A stretch of DNA of 64,000 bases from Myxococcales bacterium. Its GTDB lineage: Bacteria > Myxococcota_A > UBA9042 > UBA3505. The notes under the pieces were generated by a model. It was not told the origin of the DNA. It ran no database searches and saw only the letters and a list, made by a program, of their open reading frames with translations. The stretch spans positions 114,226 to 178,225 of the forward strand of contig PBVT01000085.1 of NCBI GenBank assembly GCA_002728755.1, read 5' to 3'. A program made the translations under genes and the position numbers. This document shows, one piece after another, positions 6,206 through 49,076 of the stretch; positions within the stretch are counted from its first letter, which is position 1, and each line of letters opens with the position of its first letter.

Positions 6206-6280
6206 CAAAAATCTCGAATTGAATTCAAGGAATCAACGGAAGGTACGGATGTGCCGTTTTCGTGAGTCGGCCCGCGCATA

Positions 6281-15900: not shown

Positions 15901-16288
15901 GAACCAGCACATCGTCTAGTCCGTCGTTGTCCAGATCTGCGATGATTGCGGCGACTACATTGGGAATCATCTCGTGACTACCCGAGATGTGGGTACCACT
16001 GCTTACATGGATGGTGTGACTGGTTTCGAGCTGAAAGGCGGTGGCCGACATGGGGATAGGAACGACAGGTTTTAGGACGTCGATGGAGTTGGCCAGCACT
16101 CGGTAGAGGCGTAGATCGCCACCGGATGCCGACCCTTTTACTCCCAATTGCATGTCGAGGGAGGGCCAGTCCGAGATCTGGCGTTTTCCGAGAGGAGAGC
16201 CCCATCCAGCCTGTGCGGTTCCTCCATGCCAGACTAGCCCGAGAAGGATCCCGAGGACTGGTACCATGATCCGGCGACCGGGGATCAT
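12944..16288 (-). CDS. FG-GAP/ASPIC-UnbV (CRTAC1-like) surface protein with Ig-like domains and MYXO-CTERM-like tail (paralog 1)
   Basis: DLDNDGLDD, DANHDGHPD and DLDLDGITD Ca-binding repeats; UnbV-like VHVGTG...WPSG; PRDSAGN Ig-like motif; tail SGCSQSG-TM-RR. Start moved to ATG 16288 (signal peptide, directly after the upstream stop). Confidence 0.8.
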   Translation of the reverse strand: MIPGRRIMVPVLGILLGLVWHGGTAQAGWGSPLGKRQISDWPSLDMQLGVKGSASGGDLRLYRVLANSIDVLKPVVPIPMSATAFQLETSHTIHVSSGTHISGSHEMIPNVVAAIIADLDNDGLDDVLVPTPSPGRPFRYLKGRSDGDFDDVTRTRIATTQAVDAYGIVMWDANHDGHPDILAAPQRVLSDGIPFDLATPPHDLLLYINDGEGRFFDIQALPSTTPFANTLFLFDTDNELGAEVWISEDYGYNEYKDVILKATSDTTGFSIENIITTLIPDDVDRHGMGLDITVPAPGHAPRVYHTSIGPSIVHEYDVTTNQYTVVPGGAGTETPFDRNAYRTKWAPIFADLDLDGITDLIVPGFGVNSQVIGLPDAMAEGLLVYRGNDAGEYTLHPDSHNFLKIELIRALEPIDPDGDGRVDFIAWPRHGDPFLLANLLDPVGHGLSIELKPSVAIPRASGGSVVVRCGDQEWNRFLKDCAMAQGCFRGWVHVGTGTCDEPVDITVNWPSGYIQSVSNVELDQQIQIVEPEWLMLSETDATTSTLQIAPVEGPSGEPGCSSESVTIELTTESSTQTFDAPCEATSGFHIATFERPGTGPDQHFVVRIDVGGTPLPIRPRARGISADTSLNVWLEPPRPAQGFEGFVYIQGSGVDGAPLPNITVHGVLSQGESLLLENDLIQVPVEFGEEGTEVTIEIGDGPDLEASLGITQRGCSVISERTHMVSGWNDLMPFAMGEVHLELILEGEGCPSQASGIVEHIASDNGSPVFYHLDVVGPRLAFRFNSPPTVPFVVDLNENGLGIFHVDEHLLEPPETPEDLLDQLDLTTSSLVPVSSLIGDGSDVIPVAMLLQTQNGVTIGDPGMYDVSLQCGGGIHEVDVREYHLPATWIFRSLLKAGTETGNFTCELLIGETPTGISTIVQVIEPAIPPAISLDHSTVFIYRAGPVLNLIVQPRDSAGNLIGSGLNLDISGGEPLLIDQLRYVGRGWYASKYTHPVEAVLMHFTVLQDGAPLGLSHPYNYSPAGWKGPSGDWSIPYIPDPLELPSVESYRWNRIPPDDPEETETTQTSQAFRSGPIPSGCSQSGSHPTNLVWVILALLAFRATNSRRYKNRPS

Positions 16289-16289
16289 T

Positions 16290-17828
16290 CTACCAACCTG
16301 CGCCGTTGCAGAAGAGATCGGGGTGACAGATGAAGCCAGGAGAGGGGATCCCTGGAAGATCGGGTGGCGCAAGGCAACAGGCCTCTTCTCCGAAGTCAGC
16401 CAGGCATTCGGATGTTGCGTCAGGATCCACGTCCCCATTTGGCAATAGATCGGGTTCACAAATTCGGGTGCAGATCATATCGAACGCGAGGGATTCACAG
16501 GTATAGCCTTCGGTGCATGCCAGGCCTTCACAGAAGCCACCTGGCTCAACGATTTCGATGGGTCCCGGGTCTTCAACGATGTCTTCGGCGGTATCTGTTG
16601 TTTCTTCCGTATCGCTGGGATCGATATCGTCTTCCGTATCGCTAATGTCGATGAATCCACTATCCGTACCGTCCGACGTATCGGATACGTCCGTGGAGAC
16701 ACTATCGGAGATGTCCGAAGCGTCGGATCCAGCATCGGAACCGACGTCGGTGGGACCACTGTCGGTATGAGAGATTGGTCCCAGATCCAGTATGGGAAGC
16801 TCGGGTAGGCCATGGTGTGCAAGTACACCCGTGAGTTCATACTTTCCGGAAAGCAGGTTTCCTCCCAGGCCGAGCACGCTCTGTTGATGAACGGTAATGC
16901 CGTGAAACGCATCCAAGGTGGGAACATCTCCCTCGTCGAATGTGACACCAAAGTCAGAGCTTCTTGCAATGTAGCCGTTTCGGCCTGCGACCCAGAGTCC
17001 GCCTTCCGGATCAAAGGTAATGCCCATGAGCCCAGGAAGAGGCTCTGCGGTCTCGATTCGTTTCAACTCGGACCCGTCGTATCGGAAAATCGCGCCTTGT
17101 GCGGCACCACCGACCGCATAGACGTTACCGTCTGGCCCACCGACGACCGTAACGATATTGTCTGAGAACCCCGAAGGTTGGAAATTCGCACCGGACTCGT
17201 CGATCACAAGGAACTTTCCTTGTTGCCCCACGATGTAGATCGTCCCGTCGTCATCTCCCCATACTTTCAAGAAGGCTCCGCCTCCAGAATCTGGAAGCTC
17301 GACCTCCTGGGGTTCACCGTTGATAATTCGCCATGCCATAGGTGGCACATTCGGTAATTTGGGCCGACCACCAACGACCCATACATCATCCGATGATGCG
17401 CCCCAAACTCCAGCGAGCGCTGCTGTTGTTCCAAGGTCTACCCGGGTCCATTCTCCATTCAGATAATGAAGTGCTGCCCCACCTTCACCCACTGCCCAGA
17501 CGTCATCGGGTGTGATGCCATGCACCCACCAGAGCATGTGGTAGTGAGGGACATCGTCTCGAGTCCAGACGCCATCGCGTAGCCATAGGACGGCCGCATT
17601 ACCGGGCGTACCGCCCACGACGATAAGCTCATCACCAAACGACCAGGCGGCGTTCAGTGTACCATCAACGAGGTCTTCCGCTGTCAGGGTCCATGGGTTG
17701 ACTTCAAGAAATGGATTTGTCGTGGGGGGCGTCCCACCACCACATCCAAAACTCGCCAGGAGCCAGAGCAGTAGCAGATGAAAACGTCCCAGTTTTTTCG
17801 GGACTCTTGTGTGTCCAACCTCAGTCAT
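16290..17828 (-). CDS. Lipoprotein with beta-propeller (DDVWAVG repeats), Asp/Ser/Thr-rich linker and Cys-rich C-terminus
   Basis: Lipobox SFGC; repeats VHGITPDDVWAVG and VWGASSDDVWVVG; terminal Cys cluster. Confidence 0.75.
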   Translation of the reverse strand: MTEVGHTRVPKKLGRFHLLLLWLLASFGCGGGTPPTTNPFLEVNPWTLTAEDLVDGTLNAAWSFGDELIVVGGTPGNAAVLWLRDGVWTRDDVPHYHMLWWVHGITPDDVWAVGEGGAALHYLNGEWTRVDLGTTAALAGVWGASSDDVWVVGGRPKLPNVPPMAWRIINGEPQEVELPDSGGGAFLKVWGDDDGTIYIVGQQGKFLVIDESGANFQPSGFSDNIVTVVGGPDGNVYAVGGAAQGAIFRYDGSELKRIETAEPLPGLMGITFDPEGGLWVAGRNGYIARSSDFGVTFDEGDVPTLDAFHGITVHQQSVLGLGGNLLSGKYELTGVLAHHGLPELPILDLGPISHTDSGPTDVGSDAGSDASDISDSVSTDVSDTSDGTDSGFIDISDTEDDIDPSDTEETTDTAEDIVEDPGPIEIVEPGGFCEGLACTEGYTCESLAFDMICTRICEPDLLPNGDVDPDATSECLADFGEEACCLAPPDLPGIPSPGFICHPDLFCNGAGW

Positions 17829-17859
17829 CGGTACATTGTGGCGTGCCCCGAGCCAGACT

Positions 17860-20800
17860 TCAAGAAACCCGCTTTAGCGTGGGACGTAGTCGCGTCACTC
17901 CACACCAGAAAAGCAGTATAAAAAAGATGGTTCCGGTGGGAGACGGCCCTGTGGTGCAGCCAGAGGCCTGCTCCGGCATAGGGGCGAGCTTAATAGCCGA
18001 TGAGCCCTGGTGCGGCTCTTCCTCTTCCTCTGCTTCTGGAGGAATGGGGGGATAGGAGATCCCAATCGGGTTTAAGGCTTTGCCCTCAGGGAAAAAGATA
18101 TCCGGGACTTCATACTCCGGTTTTTCCACCGGCCAATATCGAAATCCTCCGGCGGGGTAGGTTAAGAAGTCGGTGCCGACCCCGGTATCTACACCATTCG
18201 CGTGAATCTGTATTTGGGCCTGTCCGAAGCCTTCCGGGGGCGTATACAAGCCAACGAAGAGACCGCGCCCCGCGTATGTCAGCGGCGTAGTGACTTCGCC
18301 AGTGACCGCAAAGATAGAGATATCGGTCGACGAACCAATCAGATTTCCCGCAGAGTCTCTGGGAAATACGATCACCGACATTGCACCTCCACCACTGGGG
18401 GACACCAATAGGAGTGTATTGTCTGCGTCCACCGTGGGGCTTTCGAGGGCCGCATCCACTTGAATATAGCCGGTGATACCGGTGGGTTGGCCTGCGATCA
18501 TGATTTCACAAAGATGATCGCCGGGCTCGGTTCCAGCCCGAACAAATAGTCGAGCCATGGTCAATGCCGGCAAGTGGTAGGAGTAGGGGTAGACCTGTTC
18601 AACGCCACCTTCGCATTCAACAGTAATGTTGTAGTTCTCCACCTGTGTAATCAACTTGTCGTCCATCGTTCGAACGACAAATCCCACAGGAGCGATGTCG
18701 CGACCGTCGGCCTGGATAAAGGCCATCGGATATAGCCACCCACCCTCGGGGTTCAATTCTTCGAGGAGCTGTTCGGGTGTTTCTGGGAACGGAAGAAGAT
18801 GTTGGTCGAAGGTCAAGACTCCCAGACCACCAGTTGTCATATCCAGGTGAAGTTCCTGCTCTTTGAGGCTCTCGACGAGGACCTTGATATAGGAATCGCG
18901 TAGCCGAATCTCCGGTGTGTCGGCGCCGCTACCATCGGTGTAGGAGCCGGTGGCTCCGAGTTCGAAGTCGTTGGTTGGGCAGCGTGGTCCCTCCATTATG
19001 AATTGGAAGATCAGCTGTTCCTCTACGTTGTCCGCCGCGGGGTCGCCTTCTGGGTCTTGCACCGACTGAATTCGGGTCTTTACGATTTCACAGGGGGTAA
19101 CGGTATTTCCGACGACGCTATCAAAATAATCCACATCGCCACGGTGAACTCGTACGTGCACCGGCGTGTCGATGGCGGGTAAGTCCACCGGCAGCATATA
19201 AACGTTGGGTTCCAGCTCTTGCAGGTCGCCCGTTGCGACAGCTCCCATCACTGTGATCTCGGGGGGATCTCCTTCGATGTCGTTATCCATTTTAAGCCAG
19301 ACATACCCAGGGGTTTCGGCTGGAAGGCCGGAGGGAGCGACTTGTATATTTGCTCGAGGAGCCTCCAGTGGAACCTGGAGACGAATTCGATGAGAAAAGA
19401 CAACTCCGCCGACCTCTGCAGCGATTCCAAAATAGGAACCGGGTTCAATGTCTGGCCACGGAACAGAACCAATATGGATATCCAACTCTGTGTCGCAGGG
19501 AGCCGGCAGTACGGTAGTCTCCGTCGCTGTGATCACATGTAAGTTTACGGGTTCCTCGCTGCAACCGGGTTCGTCATCGTTTTGTTGTATGGGAGCGATA
19601 TGAATCGTCAGGTCTTCGGTAGAGTGCGGTTCGGATACAACCTTGAACCAATCGGGTTCGGTGATCGTTACACCCTGGTCGACTGGTAGCTGGTACACAG
19701 TCTGTATGTACCCAGATGGCCACTCTACGACGGTGGTTAACGGGCCCTCACAATCGCCCACTCCCACATGAACCATGCCTCGAAAACAACCCTGGCTCAT
19801 GACGCAATCTTTAATATACCGCGTCCAGGTGGAATCCTGTGCGTTCTCACCGCCGGGTACCAGCTCGTTACCGCAAGTAACATGAACGGTACCTCCGGTG
19901 GCTCGGGGGGCGGATACGGTGCTATCGAGCGTGATGGATATACCGTGGCCGAGAGGAGGCAGGGTGTTCATCATAAGCAGCGGATCGCCGGCTACCGTCC
20001 AACCGATTACGTCCATTCGTCCGTCATTGTCCATGTCCAGAGGTTCCACAGCACGAATCCGCTTGGTCTTCAGATAGCCGTGGGTGTCTTCTCCTGCCCG
20101 AAATTTTCCATCTTCTTCAAAACGGAACATCAAAAGCCCTTCGGTCAGGGCATCGGGAAGACCAATAACTGCTGCGCCAACACCTCGACCCGCTTCCAAC
20201 AAGTCGGTACGGCCGTCGAGATCGAGATCTACAAATACGGGCCCCCATTTGGTTCGGTAGGCGTTTTTGTCAAAGGTGCTCTGGCTTCCGTACCCACCCG
20301 AGACGATATTGAATTTGCCAGTCTCAGGGTCACGCTCGTGTGCGACGCCGCTGCCGATGGATGTATGGTGAACGAAAAGCGGAGCGCCCGGATAGAGATG
20401 GGCGATGTCAAAGCCCATGCCCATTCGACCTAGATCCGAATTCATCATCCCCGGGTAGATATCTTCGATGATTGGTAGACCACCGGGGTTTCTGTCTATG
20501 GTCTTCAGGTTATTGTCCCGCTGGTCGCCAAAGCCCAGATCATTGGAGCTCCACGCCTCGGCCAGATTGTCGCCATCCATATCAAAGAATACGATCGCGT
20601 TTGGGTAATTCGAGACCGTGGGAAGGGTGACGAAGTCTCGAAAGAACCCATGTCCGTCGTTGATAAATAAGACGTAGGTCTGGGGCGGTGTGACAGTTCC
20701 AAAGGAGATGCCCGATTCCAAATCCCCCAGCCCCATAGCGACCACATCAGGGTGTCCGTCGGCGTTGGCGTCCCATAGGGCGATACCATGGTAATTACGT

Positions 20801-21312
20801 CGTGGAACGGAAGCTACCCGTGCGATCGTTACGTCCTTGAAGCCGCCTTCTGGCAGTCCTTTCAGGTATACTATCGGGATGCGGTTTTTCGGTCCCGGTA
20901 CTAGAAGATCCAGGATACCATCCCCGTCTATATCTTCCGCGATTACGGTCATGACCGTGTCATCGACAGCGTCGGAGGCGAGGGCCACTGGGTAATCCAT
21001 TGGGACTTCATGGATTGCGATCGTTTCAAACGCTTCGCCCGTAGCTGGTACCGGGAGGATCGGTGCCATTACCTCCACCTGGTTTGGTGTCATACGGTAC
21101 AGTCGAATCCCTTCGCCAGCTCGTTGAGGTCCGATACCCATTTGCCAATTCGGGTGACCGAACCAGATCGAAGGGGGAAGAGTTCGAATCGAGAAGGGGT
21201 CTTCCCATGTACCGGCTTCTACCCTTTGCGCTGGCAAGAAAAGGAGTAAGCCAGCAAGGATTGCAACGACGATGCGAGCAGAAATGGACTTGTGGGGATT
21301 CAGATCGCGCAT
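17860..21312 (-). CDS. FG-GAP/ASPIC-UnbV surface protein with Ig-like domains and MYXO-CTERM-like tail (paralog 2)
   Basis: DIDGDGILD, DANADGHPD, DLDLDGRTD, DMDNDGRMD; VHVGVG...WPSG; tail ASGCTTG-TM-basic. Start probably ATG 21312 (track uses 21363). Confidence 0.8.
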   Translation of the reverse strand: MRDLNPHKSISARIVVAILAGLLLFLPAQRVEAGTWEDPFSIRTLPPSIWFGHPNWQMGIGPQRAGEGIRLYRMTPNQVEVMAPILPVPATGEAFETIAIHEVPMDYPVALASDAVDDTVMTVIAEDIDGDGILDLLVPGPKNRIPIVYLKGLPEGGFKDVTIARVASVPRRNYHGIALWDANADGHPDVVAMGLGDLESGISFGTVTPPQTYVLFINDGHGFFRDFVTLPTVSNYPNAIVFFDMDGDNLAEAWSSNDLGFGDQRDNNLKTIDRNPGGLPIIEDIYPGMMNSDLGRMGMGFDIAHLYPGAPLFVHHTSIGSGVAHERDPETGKFNIVSGGYGSQSTFDKNAYRTKWGPVFVDLDLDGRTDLLEAGRGVGAAVIGLPDALTEGLLMFRFEEDGKFRAGEDTHGYLKTKRIRAVEPLDMDNDGRMDVIGWTVAGDPLLMMNTLPPLGHGISITLDSTVSAPRATGGTVHVTCGNELVPGGENAQDSTWTRYIKDCVMSQGCFRGMVHVGVGDCEGPLTTVVEWPSGYIQTVYQLPVDQGVTITEPDWFKVVSEPHSTEDLTIHIAPIQQNDDEPGCSEEPVNLHVITATETTVLPAPCDTELDIHIGSVPWPDIEPGSYFGIAAEVGGVVFSHRIRLQVPLEAPRANIQVAPSGLPAETPGYVWLKMDNDIEGDPPEITVMGAVATGDLQELEPNVYMLPVDLPAIDTPVHVRVHRGDVDYFDSVVGNTVTPCEIVKTRIQSVQDPEGDPAADNVEEQLIFQFIMEGPRCPTNDFELGATGSYTDGSGADTPEIRLRDSYIKVLVESLKEQELHLDMTTGGLGVLTFDQHLLPFPETPEQLLEELNPEGGWLYPMAFIQADGRDIAPVGFVVRTMDDKLITQVENYNITVECEGGVEQVYPYSYHLPALTMARLFVRAGTEPGDHLCEIMIAGQPTGITGYIQVDAALESPTVDADNTLLLVSPSGGGAMSVIVFPRDSAGNLIGSSTDISIFAVTGEVTTPLTYAGRGLFVGLYTPPEGFGQAQIQIHANGVDTGVGTDFLTYPAGGFRYWPVEKPEYEVPDIFFPEGKALNPIGISYPPIPPEAEEEEEPHQGSSAIKLAPMPEQASGCTTGPSPTGTIFFILLFWCGVTRLRPTLKRVS

Positions 21313-21372
21313 ATAGCCGTCATGGTTGCCGTGTTTGTGCCCAACAAAACCTACCAACTGCAACCGATAGAT

Positions 21373-33382: not shown

Positions 33383-34879
33383 TCAACTCTTTTCCGCACC
33401 AAAATTTTCGCCGTCATGGGACCAGACGACCGTCTTCCCTCGATGGTCCACGGTGCGAATATGAACCGGTCGCTGCCAGAGTGCGAGCACGTTCTGGAGC
33501 GTTCGTTTGGCGTAGGTCTTATCCAGGCCGGTCTGATCGGTTCGATGGGCTAGCAGTAGTTCCCCTCGATTTCGATAGTTCGCATCTTCAACCACTACAA
33601 CGGGTTGCCCTGAGTTTGTGAGCTGGAACAGAAGTCGCTCTCGCACCTTATCTGGGTCGCGGCTATCGATAATCCACTGCCCCCGTTTGGGATCGAACCG
33701 ATAGTTGTAGAGATCCAACCGCTCGATCATTGCCGGGGTCAAAAACTCATCAATAAAAGTGACGTCGTTATGTAGTTTACGGACCTCAAAGATTTTCTCT
33801 CGACCCATACCGAGATGACGGTTCCAATTACTGCGTTGTCGGAAATCGTCGCATGCGTTCCACTCTTCTCCGAATTGCCCCTTATCCCAACGTTCCTCAA
33901 TATCCCGAAACAGCTCAAGGCCGATTTTATAGGGGTTGGTTTGTCCTGGGGCTGTGGCCATTGTGGCGGAATGGGTTTCAGCAAAGTCGACAATCTCTCC
34001 GGCGTCGGCGAGACCTGACGTCATCATCTTACTGTGCCAATAGCTCGCCCAACCTTCATTCATGATCTTGGTCTGGCGTTGTGGTGTGAAATACAGCGCC
34101 TCTTCACGCAACATCCCCAGTATATGTCGTTGCCAGCGCTCCAGGGGGGCGTGCTCCATCAGAAATCCCATGATGTCCCGTTCGGGTTGTTCCGGGAACC
34201 GCACTCGCCCCTGCTGTTTTTCTTCCTTAATCTTTCGCTGCTCCGCAATATATTCGGGCGGATTGATCCAGTTCTCCATATAGGACTTATCGACTTTGAG
34301 GCGGGGCACCGTCTGGCGTTCACGGGGATCGTGTTCTTCCTCGGCCAGGGGCTCGTCGATACGGTTTTCTGGGCGGGCCGCTGGTGCGAAAGGATCGATG
34401 AGATTGTCTATGGATAGACAGGAGTCCACGAACTGTTCCACGAGGTCGATACCGTACTGATCCATATACCGCCGAATGCGAACCCCATGGTTCGCTGTGG
34501 TGTCGATCATTTTACGGTTGGTACGTGCGAAGTAGTAGTTGTTCTTAAAGAAATCGCAATGGCCATACACATGGGCCATCACCATCTTCTGCTCCATATC
34601 GCTATTGCCTTCCAGAAGGTAGGCGTAGCAGGGATCATTATTGACCACGAGCTCGTAGATTTTCGCCAGGCCGTAGCCGTGCAATTTGTAGTTTCTTTCG
34701 AACTCCATTCCAAAACGCCAATGTGGATATCGTTTTGGAAATCCTTCGAATGAAGCCACCTCGCACATTCGTTTGTAGTCCACCAGAACGAAAACGGTCT
34801 CAAAGAAGTCCAAGCCCTGCTCTAGAGATAGGTCTCGGATATGATCACGATATTGGGCGAGTGGTTCTGGAAGCCCCAT
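33383..34879 (-). CDS. spoVR: SpoVR family protein
   Basis: Motifs RYPHWRFG, IYELVVNNDPC, AHVYGHCDFFKNN, TKIMNEGWASYWH, NPYKIG. Start moved to ATG 34879, just after the yeaH stop. Confidence 0.96.
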   Translation of the reverse strand: MGLPEPLAQYRDHIRDLSLEQGLDFFETVFVLVDYKRMCEVASFEGFPKRYPHWRFGMEFERNYKLHGYGLAKIYELVVNNDPCYAYLLEGNSDMEQKMVMAHVYGHCDFFKNNYYFARTNRKMIDTTANHGVRIRRYMDQYGIDLVEQFVDSCLSIDNLIDPFAPAARPENRIDEPLAEEEHDPRERQTVPRLKVDKSYMENWINPPEYIAEQRKIKEEKQQGRVRFPEQPERDIMGFLMEHAPLERWQRHILGMLREEALYFTPQRQTKIMNEGWASYWHSKMMTSGLADAGEIVDFAETHSATMATAPGQTNPYKIGLELFRDIEERWDKGQFGEEWNACDDFRQRSNWNRHLGMGREKIFEVRKLHNDVTFIDEFLTPAMIERLDLYNYRFDPKRGQWIIDSRDPDKVRERLLFQLTNSGQPVVVVEDANYRNRGELLLAHRTDQTGLDKTYAKRTLQNVLALWQRPVHIRTVDHRGKTVVWSHDGENFGAEKS

Positions 34880-34883
34880 ATGA

Positions 34884-36008
34884 CTATTTCCCCGTTCCAA
34901 GAAAGTCTTTAATGGACTGCATAATGGCGTCTCTTCCGGGGATTTCGGAGAGAACCACCTGATCGTTTTTTGAGAAATGCTCGCGCAAATCCTTGATAAA
35001 CTGACCGCTTCCGTATGCGGAAACGACCTGCCCATAACAGAAGATATTACTGTGGGGCAGGATGTGTTCGCGCAGAAGAGCCATGCAGACATCGGTGTCG
35101 TCTAGCGACCAATTATCTCCATCGCTGAAATGGAATGGATAGATATTCCAGTCCGACGCTGGGTATTCGTTGGATATGATGTCTGACGCGAGCTTGTAGG
35201 CACTACTGATCATCGTGCCGCCAGATTCGCGAGTATGAAAGAACGTCTCTCGGTCTACTTCGCGGGCGACGGCGTCATGGATAATGTAACGAGTCTCCAG
35301 ACCTTCGTATTGCGAGCGTAGCCAGGTATCGATCCAGAAGGACTCGATACGAACGATTTCTTTCTGCTCGTCACCCATGGAGCCGGAAACATCCATCATA
35401 TAGATGATCACCGCATTGGTTTCCGGTTGCTTTTCCTCTTTCCAGGAACGGAAACGCATATCATCACGAATTGGGACAACGATGGGGTTGTCCGGGTTGT
35501 AGTTTCCTACGGTTACCTGCCGACGTAGAGCTTCCCGATAGGTTCGCTTGAAGTGTCGTAGGGAATGCGGCCCAGTACTTCGGATCGAGTTATATCGTTC
35601 CTTTGTGCTGGCAATGTTTTTTCTACCCTTGGGCTCGATGCGGGGCAACTGTAGCTCTTCCCCCAGGATTTCCGCCAACTCATGAATTTTGATGTCGACT
35701 TCGAGCTCATGCTCACCCGGAGCTTGACCGGCCTTACCGCCACCTTCACCTTCACCGGGTTCTCCACCCAGGGAGTCACCGGGCTCGCCCTCTCCCTGAC
35801 CAACGCCCCCACTGTTCTTCTTGCCATAGCGGAATCGAGGTGTGTCGATCTGTGGGATGTTGATCGAGACTTTATCTTTTCCTCTACGCCCCAGGATCGA
35901 CCCGTTGCTGATGAATTCTTTCAGATTGTCACGGATATTTCCCTTAACGATCTCTTTGAATCGCCAATGGTCCCGTTCAATATTGAGAATATCTGACTCT
36001 GTTGGCAT
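34884..36008 (-). CDS. yeaH: YeaH/YhbH (DUF444) vWA-like protein
   Basis: Motifs [27 protein letters not shown]; located between prkA and spoVR. Confidence 0.95.
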
Positions 36009-36043
36009 GGCAGTGATGGGTTAAATCAGGATGTGAAGCCGCT

Positions 36044-38098
36044 CTAGTCTCCCTCTTTGGCGTCGCCGCGGGCAAAGATACTGGCCACATAATTGAGAAC
36101 ATCGGTGGCGCTCTCTTCGTTGTAGCCGTAGTCCCGAATCAATCGCTGTTTTACGACATCGATTTTACTCTGGGTTTCGCGGTCCACGACGTTGGAGACC
36201 AGGGTCGACAATTTGATGGTGTCTTTTTGATCTTCAAACAGCTTCAGCTCGAGAGCTTTACGAAGGCGTTCGTTGCTTCGGTAATCGAAGGTCTTTCCTT
36301 CGACGGCGAGAGCACCAATATAGTTCATGATCTCACGACGGAAATCGTCTTTGCGCGCCTCTGGTACGCCGATCTTTTCTTCGATGGCGCGCATGAGACG
36401 CTCATCTGGATCTTCCGATTGACCGGTATACTGATTCTGAACGCGTTCACGTTGCGTATATGCCTTCACATTATCTACGTAGTTACTACATAGGTGCTCG
36501 ATGGCTTCTTCATCCGCACTGATGGCGCGCTGCACTTCGTTCTTGATGATGTCTTCGTATTCCTGTTTCACCAGACTCATCAGCTCGCGATAGCGTTTCT
36601 TAGTCTCCTCATCGTTGATGAGGCTATGGGTTTTGAGTCCTGAAATTAATGCGTTCATCACCATGAAGGGGTTGATGCTGCCATGCCCTTCTCTTGCAAC
36701 AAGTGCATTGGAGATCTTGTCCTGGACATAACGAGCACTGATACCGAGCATACCTTCTCGCCGGGCTTCTTTACGAAGCTCTTTGATATTGTCTGCTGTG
36801 TAACCCGGAAGAGATTTGCCGTTATATAGTTTCATCTTCTGGATGATCGACAGGTTCGGCCGGTTGGGCTCTTCGAGTCGAGAGAGGACCGCCCACATAG
36901 CCGCGACTTCGAGGGTATGGGGCGCAATATGAACGCCCTTTACCGATTCGTTGTTAAAGTCTTTGTCGTAGATGCGAACTTCTTCGTCGACGCGCGTGAT
37001 ATAGGGAATATCAATCTTGATCGTACGATCGCGGAGGGCTTCCATGAACTCGTTATTCAAGAGGCGCCGATACTCCGCCTCATTGGTGTGCCCAATAATC
37101 ACTTCGTCAATATCCGTCTGCGCGAATTTCTTCGGTTTAATCTTATGTTCCTGGGTGGCCCCCAGAAGATCGTAGAGGAACGCTACGTCCAACTTCAGAA
37201 TTTCGACGAACTCGATGATTCCACGATTTGCGATGCAGAATTCTCCATCGAAATTGAACGCCCGTGGGTCGGAGTCCGACCCATATTCCGCGATCTTACG
37301 GTAGTTGATGTCTCCAGTAAGCTCGGTGCTATCCTGATTCTTCTCGTCTTTGGGCTGGAAGGTACCGATACCGACACGGTCCTTTTCGCTAAAGGCAAGA
37401 CGACGGACACGGATATGTTTACTTATCATCTGCTCCCAATCACCCTCGTACCGACCCAGTAGCTCCTGGAAGTAGAAGCGGCTGGGCGGACATAGGTCCT
37501 GGTTCAAGAGGTGATGGAGCGGGTATTCGTAATTCAACAGGCCGAGCTCTTCCATGGCGGTATGGCGCCATTCATGGGGAATCAGAAGAAGCGGCTCTTC
37601 ATGGACAGGGCTTACGAAGGTTTCATCACTGTGTTCGCTCGGCAGTACCCATTCAAACGAATAGAGGGCGCCTTCCGGTGAGCGCGTGTATTTTTCCAAT
37701 CCCTTTTTCAGGAGCCGAACTACGGTTGATTTCGCCGAGCCGACCGGTCCGTGAAGGAGAAGGATTCGCTTTTCTGGTCCGAAGCCCTGGGCGGCCGCCT
37801 TGAATACATCCATCAATTTCATGACGGGAATTTCAAGACCGAAGATTGCGTCCTTTCCGTCGGCGCCTTCATCCGAGAAGAAGTTATACCGAATAATCTT
37901 CTTCTTATTATCTACGTATTCCTCCATGCCGTGTGCGACAACCATGTCGTAAAGACGTTGCCAGGCATTGCGCAGTACACGCGGATTATCTGCCACAATA
38001 TCTAGATAATCTTCAAAGCTTCCTGTCCAGGAAAGCTCTTTGAATTCCTTAATACTGTGGTGCTGTGCCAGTGATGATAGGCGATTCTCGGAACTCAT
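36044..38098 (-). CDS. prkA: PrkA/YeaG AAA+ serine protein kinase
   Basis: Walker [38 protein letters not shown]. Confidence 0.97.
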
Positions 38099-43217: not shown

Positions 43218-44845
43218 CGGTTGCCTCTTCGTCCTAGAAGTCGGGCGATGCTTCGGGCGTCGTCACCCGTGAGCTCGCGAGATACAAACCATGCAATCAA
43301 TACGCAGGCAAAGAAAACCAGTACGCGGAGTAGAGCTGTAAGGATGCTGGTCACAGGCATAAGATGAAGTAGAGCAAAGGCGATGCCCCCTGCGCCGACG
43401 ACACCACGAATTAAGCTCAACCATGGTAATCGGACGGAGAGAATGCGGGCCAGTAGGATACTCGACAAGATAAAGCCAAGAAGGGGGCCAGCCATACTCA
43501 GCCACGCGGCAACAGTTGCACGATCGAATGGAGTCGTGGCGTTCCGTGTGCCGATCATAAGGAGTACAACGTAGGTTACGGCACATACGAGCCCAACGAA
43601 GAATGTCTTCCCCGGATGTCCCGCAGCGGTCAATATGCTGGTGAGAAGAAAATATAGGGCAAAGGCGAGTGTGCCGAAGACCATCGGGATAAGGAAAATG
43701 GCGCCGGCTGCGTAGGGAGCTCCGAATAGAATTCGAAGGAGGATATCTTCGGTCAAAACAAGAGCACCACAGAGACTGGCCACCAGGAGGATTGCGAAAC
43801 GTAGGGCGCCAGTAATGGTCCGTTCTGTCTTTTTCTGATCCTCTTGAAATGTTGCCGCAGAGAGTAGCGGAAAGATCACGAAGGTCAGGGAGATTATGGC
43901 CTGATAGGGGAGCATGGTGATGATACGAACCGCCCCATAGATCCCCGTAACGGAGCTCGCACCGTCCCGAGCAAGATGGTCTGTCGATAAGGTGGCATTT
44001 TCCATTGTACCGTGCAGAAGGTTCATCCCCAGACCGGCGCCTGCAGCTTCCAATGTGTTTGCACCCGCGCCGTGCACCAGACCCTTCAGGAGTACGACAT
44101 CACCCTGCAGGATAAAATAAAGCGTTAGATTGAAGCCCATGACGCCCGCCATAAAACGGATCATCCGCCGGGTATCCATCACATTGGCGTCTGGGTTGGG
44201 GCGAGCGGGGGTCTTCCTTGCGATGACGAGAAAAGCCACACAGGTCATAAGCAGCGTCACGGTTGTAAACATTGCGAATACACCGATAACGCCCAGGCCC
44301 AGGATCACAGCAGTGACAATGCCAGCTGTTTTTAGAGTCGCAAAGCCGATATCAAACATGGCCTGGGTACGATAATTTTCGAGGCCGTTCGCGATACCGA
44401 TCCACGTTGCGTATAGCCCATACCCGAGCAGCACACCCGTTGCGATGCGTAGAGGTAAGGCCAGGGATCCATCGTGCCACAGCCAGCCGGCGATCAAATC
44501 GGCACCCAGAAATACGACCAGAGCCAGGCTACCCGAGACCGTTAACGCAAGGCTTTGTGCGCGTCGGCGTACAAGTCCCGCATCCGCTGGAGATTCGGAC
44601 GCGCCCTTACTCGAGGTTTGGAGTGAACCTGTCAGAATGACCATGCTCAATACAGCCAGAAATCGCGCAAGGGTCTGGTAATCACCGTATAGCTGGGTAT
44701 CCCCAAACAGCCTTGGCAGGGCAATGTTGAGAAGGGTGGCCGTCACCAGGAACCAAAGCTTGGCTCCCGTAATCCAGAGGAATCCCCGGCCTATATGGCC
44801 ATCAGAAACGTCTGATTCGGGTTTGGGCTCCTCCCCCGACTCCAT
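43214..44845 (-). CDS. MOP-superfamily (Wzx/MurJ-like) oligosaccharide flippase
   Basis: About 14 hydrophobic segments; G.Y.A..., IFPLLS and LFGAPY patterns; translationally coupled on both sides. Confidence 0.8.
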   Translation of the reverse strand: MESGEEPKPESDVSDGHIGRGFLWITGAKLWFLVTATLLNIALPRLFGDTQLYGDYQTLARFLAVLSMVILTGSLQTSSKGASESPADAGLVRRRAQSLALTVSGSLALVVFLGADLIAGWLWHDGSLALPLRIATGVLLGYGLYATWIGIANGLENYRTQAMFDIGFATLKTAGIVTAVILGLGVIGVFAMFTTVTLLMTCVAFLVIARKTPARPNPDANVMDTRRMIRFMAGVMGFNLTLYFILQGDVVLLKGLVHGAGANTLEAAGAGLGMNLLHGTMENATLSTDHLARDGASSVTGIYGAVRIITMLPYQAIISLTFVIFPLLSAATFQEDQKKTERTITGALRFAILLVASLCGALVLTEDILLRILFGAPYAAGAIFLIPMVFGTLAFALYFLLTSILTAAGHPGKTFFVGLVCAVTYVVLLMIGTRNATTPFDRATVAAWLSMAGPLLGFILSSILLARILSVRLPWLSLIRGVVGAGGIAFALLHLMPVTSILTALLRVLVFFACVLIAWFVSRELTGDDARSIARLLGRRGNR

Positions 44846-46374
44846 CAGTTGCGACCCTCATCTTTTGTCTTTGTAGAGCCTGGTCCTTTGGCTCGTAGAC
44901 AAGCTTGGATTGTCTGACGGTATGCATCACCCGTTTGCGTGAGGATTTCCTTCACACGGATTTCACATTCTGCGGCGCGTTCCGGCGTGATCTTTTTTGA
45001 TTTCTTCTGTTGGTCAATCAGCGCAAGCAGCTCCATGCCGTCGAGTGCGTTTTGTGCGAGTGCTGAGGCGTTCGACACCTTATCGAATACAGTTGCCAGG
45101 CTACGACGACGTCCTTTGCGAACGACGTTCTTGAGACTCCGTGTCGCGGAGGTGGAGTTCCACACCTTTGAACATACGATACCGAGTGCCATTTGAACCG
45201 GGACTCGAGAGCTGATGAGCTTCAGAACCTTATCCTTGCTGTCTTTGGCCTTGTTATGAAGATTGTCAGCACAGAATTCTACCATGGTCATATCGGTAGA
45301 ACGCTCTTCCGCGTCGGCGAAGTTGATATCAGGGCCGAGGGCTTCCAGAGCAAGGTCGAAGCCAGCGTCTCCCATATTGTTCACCAGCATACGAATGGCC
45401 GTCCAACGGTCATCGATCGAATCGCCGGTGAGGATAGGGTTCAAAGCGATGAGAGCGTCTTCGACCAGCTTACGGTCCGTTAGAGCGCTGGAGGCGCACG
45501 AGGTCGCTGCGTTGAGGGCGTGCAGGCGAAGAGAGGGGTCTTTATCGGGATCAAGATAGATCTTCATCATTGGGACGAACCCTCGCCCTGCACCACTGGC
45601 CTCCATCAAACGGAGCTCTTCCTCGTTCCACGGCCAGTCTCCCTTCTGCTTTAGATGAAGTGATACGAGGGAGTTTCCGAGAACAGCTTTGGCGTGTGCT
45701 TTGGACTTTTCGTCTATATCGGAATCGGAACTCAGCGCGATTCGAATCAAATAGGTTTTCATCAACTTCAGGTCGAAGCCGTGTTGGATCAAGAGACCGG
45801 CTCCGTCCACACCGTGGATTCCAAGCTCAGAAATCTGGCTTTTTTTGATGCGGCGTTCGATTTGCGTCTGGATCTGCTTTTGTGTGGAATTTTGATCCAG
45901 GCCTGCGAATGCCCAGGTTGCGATTTCCTTTTGGATAGAGCTGCGAAGATCCGGAGGTAGGAAAAACCCTCTGCCTTTCCGTATCGAAACCAGCTGGACG
46001 AGGGTATCTCGAGTGACCGCAGCTTCGTCACTGGCTCCCTTCAAGCGTGGACGAATCTTCTCAATCAGTCGTTTTGCGATCTCAATTCCGTCTGGGGCTG
46101 CATCTACCATGCGGGGGAGCTCGAAGGTGAGTCCTTTCTCGACCATGATCTCCAGGGCTTGTAAACGTTTAGCAGGGCTTACAGAAGGATTACGCATCAC
46201 TTTGCGTTCCACCTGGTCCAGGCCTGCTGCGTTCTTGGTCCATCGCCGTAAATCCGATTCATCCACAGAGCTGCCGCATCCGATGAATATAAGGGATGCC
46301 AACATGACGATAATAAGAAGCGCCGACCCGAAGGGTCTGAACGTCTTATTTTTGTATGTGGTGTGATTAGCCAT
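44845..46374 (-). CDS. Hypothetical alpha-helical (HEAT-like) lipoprotein
   Basis: Lipobox FIGC after a hydrophobic stretch. Start moved to ATG 46374. Stop overlaps the flippase ATG (TGATG). Confidence 0.75.
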   Translation of the reverse strand: MANHTTYKNKTFRPFGSALLIIVMLASLIFIGCGSSVDESDLRRWTKNAAGLDQVERKVMRNPSVSPAKRLQALEIMVEKGLTFELPRMVDAAPDGIEIAKRLIEKIRPRLKGASDEAAVTRDTLVQLVSIRKGRGFFLPPDLRSSIQKEIATWAFAGLDQNSTQKQIQTQIERRIKKSQISELGIHGVDGAGLLIQHGFDLKLMKTYLIRIALSSDSDIDEKSKAHAKAVLGNSLVSLHLKQKGDWPWNEEELRLMEASGAGRGFVPMMKIYLDPDKDPSLRLHALNAATSCASSALTDRKLVEDALIALNPILTGDSIDDRWTAIRMLVNNMGDAGFDLALEALGPDINFADAEERSTDMTMVEFCADNLHNKAKDSKDKVLKLISSRVPVQMALGIVCSKVWNSTSATRSLKNVVRKGRRRSLATVFDKVSNASALAQNALDGMELLALIDQQKKSKKITPERAAECEIRVKEILTQTGDAYRQTIQACLRAKGPGSTKTKDEGRN

Positions 46375-46468
46375 GAGCCCTATATCTAAACACCCCTTTG
46401 GGTTCGATGCAATGTCCATGAATTGTGTTGGATTGGCAGATTTGTTGGAGTGGATTAGAGTTCTGTAT

Positions 46469-48322
46469 ATGAGATCCGGATCAAACACGTATTACGTTAA
46501 GATTTCGGCGGCCTGGACTCTTGCTTTAATTGTATTGTTCACTCAAGGGCGCGCGAATGCGAGAGAGGCCTACGTCTGGGAAGATGTTTCCCTGGGCCTG
46601 GTAACAAAAGATTTAACGGCTGTCTCTATTCTTCCCAATGATCCGAATGTGGTGTTGGTTGGTGGCTCGGGAGCGGTCTTTCGTACCAACGATGCAGGAG
46701 ATAGTTGGCGGCTTGTTCTTCGAGTCGGGCGGGGTGTGACGGAGGCTGATGATTCGACACAGCCGGAAGAGAAATCCACAGAAGAAGAGGACTTTGAGGA
46801 GGCGGCGGAACGTATCTTCAATCAATTACGACAGGAGATTGAAGATCGCTACGGCTCGTCCTACGCGGAGTCTATTGAGTCGGAACTTCGAAGTGATGCG
46901 GAGCAGCAGGCCCGTGAAGAAGTACGGGCCATCGGGGCGGACTCCAAGGAAAAGGCACGTCAGCGACAGGGGCTCACCGCGGAAGCTTCGGACCGTCGTA
47001 TTCGTCGAATACGGACCTTTGCGGACCTGGCTGGAGTGGTGTTGATCTGTACGGAGGGAGGGCTTTTCCATTCCATCGATGCGGGGCATACATTCCGTCG
47101 AGTGTCTCTAGGGCTTGGAGCTGGGCGACGCGTTGTGAATGACGTATTGGCTCTAGGGGACGGCACATTGGTTGTTGGAACGGCAATAGGTGTTGTCATA
47201 CGGTCGCCGGATGGCCGAACCCAGCGAAGTCGACTTCCCCGGAGCGCGGGCGCGGTGCGAGTGGTGCAATACCACCAACCGTCGGGACGTGTCCTGATCG
47301 GTACGGATGACGGTATCTGGGCGAGTGAAGATGCGGGATTATCGTTTCGGCGCATGGTCGCCCCGACGGGAAAAAAGGTCCGCCAAATCAATGATCTTAT
47401 TTTCTTGCCCCATTTGCCCGATATGGTGTTGGGAGCTACCGACGATGGCTTATTGCGCAGCCGTGATGGAGGCCGAAGCTTTCAGCAGACCTGGTTGCCG
47501 GCTCTTGGCCAAGGAGCAATTCGACAATTTGGGGCTGTGGCGCAGCGTCAGGAGATCCACCTGGTGACACCTCTTGGGGTGTTTCAGAGCCAAGATGGCG
47601 GGATCTCGCTCGTGGAAATCGAAGCCGGATTGACCGACCGTGATGTGCGGGCCGTGAGTGCGGCATTACACGGTGAGAGACTGCTCCTATGGATAGCGAC
47701 CCATAGCGGTGTTTTCCGTTACGTACCACGTTCGGAAGTGAAGATGTCGCGACGCATCTGGCGTGTCTTTGAGGCGTTCCAGATGGAGGAGCCTTCGTTA
47801 AACGAGGTTTTGGAGTTGGCGACCGATCGAGCCCATATGAATTCGTCTGCACCAGAGGACTTTGCTCGAAAGATTCGACTGGCCAGCCTTGGCCCACGGG
47901 TTCGATTCGAGCATGATCGAGCCTACGAGAGAAATGTAAACCAGTTGACCCCATTTGATCCTTTCAACCCAGCGTTGGGTCAGACGATAACGGTGGTTCC
48001 TGGAGTTACCGACACTCGTTTCACGGTGTACATCGACCTGGAAAACTATCTCTTCTCCCATCAGGAGATGCTGGTGCAGGAATATAACGATCGCCTTATC
48101 AAGCGTCGCCGGCGCTACCGCACACGAGTGATTCGGCTATTCCTCTCTCGTCGTGCATTGATGCTGAATCTTCTGGGCGGCCGCCCTAGAGGTAAGGCTA
48201 TGAATAGGCGTATTCAACGCCTGGCTGCGATAACGGCGATCCTGGACGGATTGACCGGATACAAACTGGATTGGGCGGATCCGGTAAAACTTCTTTCGAC
48301 CCTGCACGGAGGTAAAAGCTGA
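46469..48322 (+). CDS. Secreted BNR/Asp-box (YCF48-like) beta-propeller protein with C-terminal single OEP/TolC-like repeat
   Basis: Signal peptide (ANA-R); Asp-boxes RTNDAGDSW, SIDAGHTF, SEDAGLSF, SRDGGRSF, SQDGGISL; C-terminal ~175 aa similar to the next gene. Start probably ATG 46469. Confidence 0.8.
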   Translation: MRSGSNTYYVKISAAWTLALIVLFTQGRANAREAYVWEDVSLGLVTKDLTAVSILPNDPNVVLVGGSGAVFRTNDAGDSWRLVLRVGRGVTEADDSTQPEEKSTEEEDFEEAAERIFNQLRQEIEDRYGSSYAESIESELRSDAEQQAREEVRAIGADSKEKARQRQGLTAEASDRRIRRIRTFADLAGVVLICTEGGLFHSIDAGHTFRRVSLGLGAGRRVVNDVLALGDGTLVVGTAIGVVIRSPDGRTQRSRLPRSAGAVRVVQYHQPSGRVLIGTDDGIWASEDAGLSFRRMVAPTGKKVRQINDLIFLPHLPDMVLGATDDGLLRSRDGGRSFQQTWLPALGQGAIRQFGAVAQRQEIHLVTPLGVFQSQDGGISLVEIEAGLTDRDVRAVSAALHGERLLLWIATHSGVFRYVPRSEVKMSRRIWRVFEAFQMEEPSLNEVLELATDRAHMNSSAPEDFARKIRLASLGPRVRFEHDRAYERNVNQLTPFDPFNPALGQTITVVPGVTDTRFTVYIDLENYLFSHQEMLVQEYNDRLIKRRRRYRTRVIRLFLSRRALMLNLLGGRPRGKAMNRRIQRLAAITAILDGLTGYKLDWADPVKLLSTLHGGKS

Positions 48323-48392
48323 TCGGGTCCCATTGCAAGGGACCGTTGATTGGTGAATACTGCTCATGTGCAAAATGAACTTCAGGTGTTTC

Positions 48393-49076
48393 ATGTTTCA
48401 TCCTCGCATAATTTCGTCTCTTTCAGGTTCGTTTCGATGGACGAGTGTACTTGTTCTCGCTGCGACTTTTGTTCTGAGTGGTTTCAGCATTGGTTTGGCA
48501 CAAGATGCCGACCTTGAGAGCCAGTACCGAGGACTGATGGCTGATCAGTTTGGGCATGAACCCGATATTCGTACCGTGCAGCAGGATGCAATTCGTTACG
48601 CTGCTGCGGAGCCAGATCGTGCGCAATCATGGTTGAGCCGTTCGCGTATGGCCTATTTGGCACCCCGCCGGATTCAACTCCGCCTGGATAGGGACTTTCG
48701 TGATAACCGGAACGCGACGATGAAAGACCAGGAGGAGGTCAGCGGTCGAACCGATCTGGATGATGACGCCCTATGGCAGTTTCTGGTGGAGTGGGATCTA
48801 AGCCGACTGATATTCAACCCGGATAGTGTCCGTGCTGCAGCACAAGCGATGGATCTCGCGGAGCTCCGAGAGGATGTCCTTAACGCGGTGACCAAAATCT
48901 ATTTTGAGCGTCGTATCTTGCGTATGGAGCTTGCTACAAAGCCACCCAAAGACTTCTCTGTATTCGCGCGTAAACGTCTTCGTGTGGATGAGTTGACGGC
49001 CGATCTCGACGCGTTGACCGGTGGTATGTTCAGTCAGCGAACCAAAAAGGCACCTGCCGCATCAAAGACGAAGTAG
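48393..49076 (+). CDS. Secreted single-repeat OEP/TolC-like protein
   Basis: Signal peptide (GLA-Q); helix-helix-P-beta-loop-beta(WDL..LIF)-helix(VTKIYF)-helix(LDALTG). Start probably ATG 48393 (AGGTG RBS). Confidence 0.65.
   Translation: MFHPRIISSLSGSFRWTSVLVLAATFVLSGFSIGLAQDADLESQYRGLMADQFGHEPDIRTVQQDAIRYAAAEPDRAQSWLSRSRMAYLAPRRIQLRLDRDFRDNRNATMKDQEEVSGRTDLDDDALWQFLVEWDLSRLIFNPDSVRAAAQAMDLAELREDVLNAVTKIYFERRILRMELATKPPKDFSVFARKRLRVDELTADLDALTGGMFSQRTKKAPAASKTK

Follow-up and report, generated by a model that had tools for sequence, protein, structure and literature searches.

The 64,000-nucleotide stretch of DNA analysed here (referred to as the window) comes from contig PBVT01000085.1 of a Myxococcales bacterium (assembly GCA_002728755.1) and carries on its forward strand two adjacent genes, gene A (46469..48322, 617 residues) and gene B (48366..49076, 236 residues), which are separated by 43 bases. 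Gene A encodes a predicted signal peptide, a seven-bladed, Ycf48-like propeller that has Asp-box motifs and a helical insert, and at the C-terminus a single repeat that resembles those of outer membrane factors (OMFs) such as TolC, and gene B encodes a predicted signal peptide and one OMF-like repeat. A preliminary description, made from the sequence by eye, had proposed that the pair could form a split TolC-like channel. We consider it roughly an even chance (probability about 0.5) that A and B are exported proteins with one OMF-related repeat each, likely assembling as a six-repeat ring in the outer membrane.

The start of A at 46469 is favoured as an orthologue (P0064) has the same length of 617 residues and the position of the signal peptide agrees. 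A database record (P0063) calls A as 636 residues from 46412, 19 codons further upstream, and for B there is an alternative start at 48393, the Atlas record beginning at residue 10. Inspection by eye places the predicted signal peptide of A at 46469..46561 (+ strand, residues 1-31), where a hydrophobic core is followed by an A-x-A site with cleavage expected between LFTQGRANA and RE, and the AlphaFold2 (AF2) model has a helix at residues 6-27 within it. The predicted signal peptide of B (48366..48500, + strand) is likewise hydrophobic and then has an A-x-A site, running as VLVLAATFVLSGFSIGLA up to the expected cleavage point and continuing with QDA. A hydrophobic N-terminus is present in 49 of 49 aligned homologues of B and sequence inspection of the N-termini of A and of B found no lipobox cysteine. 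Both proteins are therefore predicted to be exported.

Sequence comparison shows that the C-terminal ~170 residues of A and the mature B protein have one domain in common. BLASTP aligned residues 441-597 of A with residues 65-219 of B (32.7 bits, E=1e-5, 41/165 identical, 25%), a profile built from B homologues alone recovered the A C-terminus in the genome with E=1.8e-12, and hhalign matched the A-type domains to the B-type family over 164 columns with P=1.4e-36. The motif pairs that had first drawn attention to the similarity are all aligned (A/B: EPSLNEV/EPDIRTV, LASLGPR/MAYLAPR, DLENYLF/WDLSRLIF, VIRLFLSRR/VTKIYFERR and LDGLTG/LDALTG). B has no sequence match in Pfam, NCBIfam or the PDB, and when PDB sequences were searched by HMMER, first B by itself and then two profiles yielded only noise (eL31 at E=0.29, CbiX at E=0.57).

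A word-indexed search found 60 homologues of B, all unnamed and mostly from metagenome-assembled genomes of Myxococcota, and the ESM Atlas matches of B were unnamed clusters of the same domain family only. An exhaustive HMMER census of 1.84 billion cluster representatives (50% identity clusters), using a profile of 52 sequences that included the A C-terminus and a second pair from the same genome, placed 3,402 clusters in the family at E<=1e-3, 2,348 at 1e-10 and 683 at 1e-30. The domain is carried by 213 of 247 collected proteins, 118 of them of 260 residues or fewer, 33 of 261-345, 3 of 346-450, 50 of 451-600 and 9 of more than 600 residues. Family members stand alone, are fused to a Ycf48-like propeller or are fused to a ComEA-like HHH domain; among 89 members longer than 260 residues that were scanned with Pfam, Sortilin-type propellers were found in 42, PSII_BNR in 33 and ComEA-type HHH_3 in 18. 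The protein P0104 and 17 other relatives of 261-450 residues carry an N-terminal ComEA-type HHH_3 domain on the module (best E=3.4e-24), and such fusions suggest that the module may also anchor or oligomerise a DNA-binding periplasmic domain. When each species was represented by a single genome, 87 relatives could be confirmed and 80 loci were retained, which span Myxococcota, Omnitrophota, Nitrospirota/Thermodesulfovibrionia, Planctomycetota and Thermodesulfobacteriota, and 33 of these loci have a single, propeller-fused family member of 450-600 residues. Within the window's own phylum the family profile matched in 67 of 121 sampled genomes with a distribution that is patchy by family.

The order of secondary structure elements that had been read by eye from the sequence is also the one that AF2 predicts for both proteins, namely helix, helix, Pro, beta-hairpin, a 40-residue helix and a ~22-residue helix. 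In A, which was modelled from a 31-sequence alignment (predicted local distance difference test score, pLDDT, 82.4; predicted template modelling score 0.63), the repeat delimited by the model, by BLASTP to B and by hhalign occupies residues 437-603 (47777..48277, + strand), with helices at 444-454 and 460-472, a hairpin at 477-492/505-521 and helices at 531-570 and 576-596. In B, modelled from 49 sequences (pLDDT 81.2), it occupies residues 62-224 (48549..49037, + strand), with helices at 68-80 and 83-96, a hairpin at 102-108/136-142 and helices at 152-191 and 197-218 that lead into an LDALTGG motif. According to section 6.2 of PMC8277102, the OMF repeat motif is made up of a pair of transmembrane strands, a long helix and two half helices. 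The order predicted for the A and B repeats in these models is that of the OMF motif with shorter helices. The models have one repeat per chain and each protein gives one profile match, with two found only in the fused relative P0110. In structural alignments made with VIA-align the OMFs gave the longest aligned spans, each onto one repeat, with 143 residues for the TolC model 9a2x (root-mean-square deviation 4.6 Å, model residues 63-226 onto TolC 20-215), 150 residues for OprN (5iuy_C) and 159 residues for 5azp_B.

An amphipathic beta-hairpin had been named beforehand as a feature to look for, and the hairpin of B with its acidic loop (48669..48791, + strand) is amphipathic, as a barrel requires, with a belt that is thin on strand 1. 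Column statistics of 209 family members show hydrophobic residues alternating at positions 103/105/107 and 135/137/139/141/143/145, with the position of W143 aromatic in 98% and position 137 aromatic in 59% of members. Between these hydrophobics lie positions with 33-84% charge, and the loop (108-134) is acidic. The pattern of strand 2 in B, W-x-hydrophobic-x-hydrophobic-x-W-x-L, resembles strand 2 of the canonical repeats of the outer membrane efflux protein family (OEP), which reads W-x-hydrophobic-x-hydrophobic-x-hydrophobic-x-W-x-L with small or polar inward positions of 0-25% charge, and strand 1 of the canonical repeats has a longer hydrophobic and aromatic stripe than that of B. On these features we lean slightly towards the hairpin being inserted in the membrane.

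In order to compare the family with OEP at the level of profiles we used a reference drawn from proteins of 31 genomes of the window's phylum, consisting of 61 distinct repeats from 33 open reading frames (ORFs) collected by iterated hmmsearch. The 209-sequence family alignment matched this reference in hhalign along 109 collinear columns, with a probability of 74%, a score of 37.4 and P=2.8e-5. The aligned stretch starts at the helix that precedes the invariant L-P, takes in the hairpin and W-D-L..L-I-F and reaches into the long helix. The 49-sequence B alignment gave E=0.014 over 91 collinear columns and the A-type C-terminal domains alone gave P=2.9e-5 over 120 columns. Against the OEP N-repeats and C-repeats taken separately the family reached P=2.9e-5 and P=8.4e-4, and the two halves of the family domain aligned separately to their expected OEP positions at P=6.4e-4 and 0.013. 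We regard this as suggestive rather than conclusive of a remote relationship between the repeat and OEP, and infer strict homology from it. The canonical N and C repeats match at P=1.7e-30, much nearer to each other than either is to the family, and therefore the family lies well outside the canonical pair. This divergence fits an old split and fast evolution equally, so that the family could be either a pre-duplication lineage or a reduced offshoot.

It is unlikely, in our judgement, that the resemblance is one of analogy or chance, with a new and unrelated fold family sharing helix periodicity and a Pro-hairpin with OEP. The real score is about twice that of any of 46 controls. The OEP profile scored 13.7 when reversed, 8.2-10.8 in ten shuffles by column and 16.3-18.7 in ten shuffles by block, and 25 unrelated neighbour-gene profiles reached no more than 20.9 when compared with the family and 18.5 when compared with OEP. 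The same P and register were given by two sets, A-type and B-type, that are largely separate sequences, and the N-terminal half, which has the hairpin and no long helix, aligned by itself at the P of 6.4e-4 given above. A chance likeness would however be compatible with the block shuffles that keep the conserved helix block and still score 16-19, with an hhalign probability of only 74%, with the lack of any HMMER-level link to OEP in Pfam or the PDB and with fold searches that do not single out OMFs.

A and B are a co-inherited pair. The phylogenetic profiling proposed for them in the preliminary description gave an A-type gene (600-860 residues, with a weaker domain match) directly upstream of a family member of 200-290 residues in 26 of the 80 related loci, the A-then-B order being kept with short or overlapping spacing across several Myxococcota families. 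The second pair in the same genome (L004, contig C77:71622-74909, ORFs 70-1812 and 1757-2440) consists of a BNR propeller protein that ends in this C-terminal domain too, followed by a 227-residue member, the ORFs overlapping by 56 bases; downstream, on the opposite strand, is a GGDEF gene. For a quick, unrooted tree we took 76 domains, namely those of the 26 A/B pairs, of the pair in the window and of 22 (the first) among the 33 single fused proteins, leaving out the other 11 single fused proteins and loci with ORFs of other lengths. The A-type domains fell on one side of a branch with a Shimodaira-Hasegawa-like approximate likelihood ratio test (SH-aLRT) value of 99 and the B-type domains grouped with the single propeller-fused domains (99); the A-type branches are long and their placement in the tree is thus uncertain. 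Sub-groupings among the A-type domains mirror those of their B partners (for example L041/L044/L048, L054/L062, L049/L086 and L038/L039/window). In addition, the 821-residue P0110 is a natural A-B fusion, with an A-type domain at 392-560 (independent E-value 0.0089), a B-type domain at 619-810 (6.8e-57) and no hydrophobic signal segment between the two. The N-terminal region of P0110 is degenerate and the fusion gives a two-repeat protomer.

A predicted A3B3 complex, folded from three copies of A (437-603) and three of B (62-224) with their own alignments and alongside three controls, gave an interaction prediction score from aligned errors (ipSAE) of 0.56 (runs 0.52-0.57) as against 0.00 for the best control and was graded 'weak support'; the runs had at least 83% of contacts in common with a partner pLDDT of at least 69. 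When ipSAE was calibrated, 116 of 157 solved complexes came up to the mark, as did 2 of 215 mismatched pairs. Only 18 of the 157, together with both passing mismatches, had scores of 0.60 or lower, and a six-chain job with its own alignments is unlike that calibration, while paralogues can pass by likeness alone. Of the hetero-oligomeric A-B channel proposed earlier, the partnership is supported by co-inheritance and by P0110, and the ring itself comes away with this weak score and no barrel geometry.

The alternative is that there is no mixed ring, A and B each forming homo-oligomers and their adjacency being a tandem duplication kept for dosage or sub-functionalisation. Homo-oligomers must indeed be viable where a single propeller-fused member occurs, as in 33 of the 80 loci (e.g. 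in Omnitrophota and Nitrospirota), and the A3B3 score is of a kind that a close paralogue can obtain by likeness. We nevertheless find this alternative very improbable for the window's pair given that the A-then-B order is kept in 26 loci and occurs twice in this genome, that the A-type branch (SH-aLRT 99) has groupings parallel to those of B and that P0110 fuses both.

The N-terminal domain of A is a seven-bladed Ycf48-like/BNR propeller with Asp-box repeats (residues ~35-420, 46571..47728, + strand), as had been recognised by eye. All Pfam matches to it are below cut-off (Sortilin-Vps10 2.3e-5, PSII_BNR 7.5e-4, BNR 5.6e-3), as is that of NCBIfam F510_1955 (2.4e-20, 72.9 bits, cut-off 175), and in the AF2 model Foldseek matched the propeller to Ycf48 (5oj3_A, E=1.1e-11, target-normalised template modelling score 0.67-0.70), to the GH74 protein 6p2k (7.8e-11) and to BT4663 sensor propellers. 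After blade 1 there is an acidic insert (residues ~88-175, 46730..46993, + strand), in which the model has a disordered acidic stretch and then a helical hairpin with helices at 104-128, 130-135 and 137-174, confirming the acidic helical insert described earlier between the blades. Its helical parts are modelled with a pLDDT of 90 or above, which drops under 50 at 88-103 and at 165-175, and an insert occurs at the equivalent position, in variable form, in 31 A-type proteins. These searches gave no sign of a photosystem or glycosidase function for the A propeller.

No gene for a membrane fusion protein (MFP), a resistance-nodulation-division (RND) transporter or an ATP-binding cassette (ABC) transporter was found among 53 ORFs of the window scanned against Pfam (17 and 19 of them in two of the scans), in agreement with the preliminary description. 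Such proteins are the usual partners of OMFs, which act with an MFP and an RND, ABC or major facilitator superfamily (MFS) transporter, in many cases encoded close by. Across the related loci convergent prfA and rpmE genes follow the pair in 10 cases, and in the single-gene lineages the neighbours are a tetratricopeptide repeat (TPR) protein (20 loci), polA (19), rho (18), coaE (16), an AsmA-like gene (8) and DUF3187 (7). In the loci L045-L098 of Omnitrophota and Nitrospirota the TPR protein, of ~370 residues, lies downstream of the propeller-fused member and is followed by polA (20 loci), with the AsmA-like gene (8 loci) and DUF3187 (7 loci) upstream, possibly an envelope-biogenesis neighbourhood. 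A link to the adjoining polysaccharide genes of the window (Wzx-like flippase, DegT, GT2, UDP-sugar dehydrogenase and epimerase) was rejected, these being beside the pair only in the nearest relative, L038. Upstream of A a divergent 547-residue ORF without a Pfam match (44845-46488, - strand) has a longest start that overlaps the start of A by 20 bases; its true start is probably downstream, where an internal Met precedes a lipoprotein-signal-like ...LIFIGC, and the only one of the 80 loci that conserves it is L038 (76% identity). Elsewhere in the window, all on the - strand, are a three-gene cluster of PrkA (AAA plus kinase), DUF444 (YeaH-like) and SpoVR (33383-38098), two ~1,170-residue FG-GAP/ASPIC-repeat proteins on either side of a 512-residue ORF without a Pfam match (12944-21363), and a polyketide synthase of more than 2,069 residues (2-6208) with ketosynthase-acyltransferase domains and four acyl carrier protein stretches that extends beyond the window.

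A number of results weigh against OMF-related repeats assembled as an outer-membrane ring. The hhalign probability is 74% and not above 95%, and was reached only after the family alignment had been enlarged from 49 sequences; two earlier attempts gave E=0.21 and 0.68 with poorly built OEP alignments, since discarded, that consisted of full-length ORFs and of centre-of-locus translations often in wrong frames, and hhalign of family against OEP in global mode gave nothing. When the final helix and its LDALTGG motif are taken alone they fail to align with OEP, and any likeness of the motif to the 'ALGGGW' of OMF C-termini is tentative. Pfam OEP is matched neither by A or B (E<=1) nor by the 49 B homologues and 89 longer relatives (E<=1e-3), a six-frame OEP search of the genome (E<=0.01) gave only two other proteins, both canonical two-repeat OMFs, and the HMMER profiles yielded no OMF among PDB sequences. 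Foldseek of the B model gave no match at E<=1e-3, with CmeC at rank 13 (E=2.4, probability 0.08), and neither Foldseek nor VIA-align singled out OMFs from the generic helical bundles that were returned. Strand 1 carries much charge in its outer part, as does the 25-residue loop, and the clean hydrophobic belt of strand 1 is just three alternating residues, which is thin for a bilayer. The A3B3 prediction returned a score without interface contacts or geometry. Among the neighbour clusters of the 80 loci there is no conserved transporter, MFP or other informative partner, though partners may be encoded elsewhere, and the genes that are conserved there belong to housekeeping (polA, rho, coaE and the TPR gene in 16-20 loci; prfA and rpmE in 10). 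The earlier identification of the domain as one OEP repeat consequently stands as a collinear profile match (P ~3e-5) far above its controls and falls short in that neither Pfam OEP nor the structure searches pick it out.

Several of the same observations could be accounted for by a soluble periplasmic oligomerisation domain, perhaps derived from an OMF, in which a helical bundle carries the beta-hairpin, with the hydrophobic stripe of the hairpin buried against the helices or within a small protein barrel, and which multimerises propeller, HHH or other domains with no membrane insertion or channel. We think this possible though on the doubtful side. It would fit a non-hydrophobic hairpin face that is 33-84% charged where the inward face of OEP has 0-25% charge, the acidic 25-residue loop and the three-residue belt of strand 1, as well as the presence of the module on unrelated periplasmic domains, the lack of transport genes nearby and the generic helical bundles found by structure searches. 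Strand 2 on the other hand, with two conserved aromatics six residues apart, mirrors strand 2 of OEP, and the collinear similarity to OEP takes in the hairpin itself.

A canonical OMF protomer has two repeats, and its trimer thus brings together six repeats with 12 strands and 12 helices. For the pair in the window we envisage a ring of six single repeats, probably A3B3 in this genome, with homo-hexamers in genomes that have the fused gene only. In the outer membrane the amphipathic hairpins would close into a small beta-barrel, and the shortened helices would form (40 residues down, 22 + 14-17 up) below it a periplasmic helical barrel ~60 Å long, in which the returning 22-residue helix and the helix at 83-96/99 of the next chain would make up an OMF-like pseudo-continuous helix. 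The agreement of 40 residues down with 22 + 14-17 up supports the six-repeat geometry and a ~60 Å tunnel, an arithmetic inferred from the AF2 model of B. Since the N-terminus of an OMF repeat is periplasmic, the propellers of A with their acidic helical inserts would decorate the barrel on its periplasmic side. That the N-terminal domains vary and that no MFP or transporter genes lie alongside suggests that the module is an oligomerising outer-membrane anchor or duct displaying a periplasmic binding domain rather than the exit of an efflux pump; with thousands of clusters in the family, and N-terminal domains of other kinds among them, the role of oligomerising outer-membrane anchor is as likely as that of efflux channel. 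Nothing in the genomic context points to a cargo.

Internal duplication of TolC-type channels is a textbook matter. Passages in PMC8277102 and in 10.1101/268029 present the two TolC halves as the product of an early duplication. More speculatively, and with considerable doubt on our part, the family may be a living single-repeat grade of the TolC architecture in which all three stages of protomer origin survive, serving as a transporter-independent duct or anchor in thousands of uncultured lineages. The homomeric single repeat would be represented by the propeller-fused proteins of Omnitrophota, Nitrospirota and Planctomycetota, the co-evolving heteromeric pair by A and B in Myxococcota and the fused two-repeat chain by P0110, six chains building what three two-repeat TolC protomers build and carrying propellers or DNA-binding HHH domains. 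In the full-text literature searched, with subscription-only literature outside its scope, there was no paper describing a single-repeat OMF, and the term 'half-TolC' was in none of the papers filtered from that search. If assembled as predicted, the proteins would provide an experimentally accessible model for the evolution and assembly of multi-chain outer-membrane barrels, and Myxococcota, Omnitrophota, Nitrospirota and their relatives would gain a newly defined component of the outer membrane. Should the module be soluble, it would still define a large unnamed domain family (3,402 clusters with no Pfam model) with a clear and testable role in oligomerisation.

Among known systems, the N-terminal domain of A has its fold and Asp-box motifs in common with the Ycf48/HCF136 and GH74-type propellers, from which A differs in its ~90-residue acidic helical insert, its C-terminal OMF-like module and scores under the curated cut-offs. 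The long antiparallel helical hairpin of the module is shared with periplasmic adaptor proteins (PAPs, the MFP family), and the preprint 10.1101/268029 reports that the helical regions of OMFs and PAPs resemble each other in sequence. The match to OEP seen here however spans the L-P motif and beta-hairpin, which PAPs, compared by description only, lack, and the lipoyl and beta-barrel domains of MFPs are absent from the A/B module. The TolC helices are 67 and ~34 residues long; those of the family are ~40 and 22 residues, with a predicted periplasmic part of ~60 Å as against 100 Å in TolC. Unlike OMFs, the family has one repeat per chain in place of two, no equatorial domain, far more charged lumen-side hairpin residues and loop, N-terminal propeller or HHH domains, no Pfam match and no MFP or inner-membrane transporter nearby. 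With OMFs (TolC, OprM, CmeC and OprN; Pfam OEP PF02321) it shares predicted export, a collinear profile similarity (P ~3e-5) and a predicted succession in which a short helix and a half helix that closes with L-P come before a two-strand amphipathic hairpin, followed by a long helix running down and a shorter returning helix with an L-x-x-A-x-G-like end. Structural alignment sets the domain in its full length on a single repeat of TolC or OprN.

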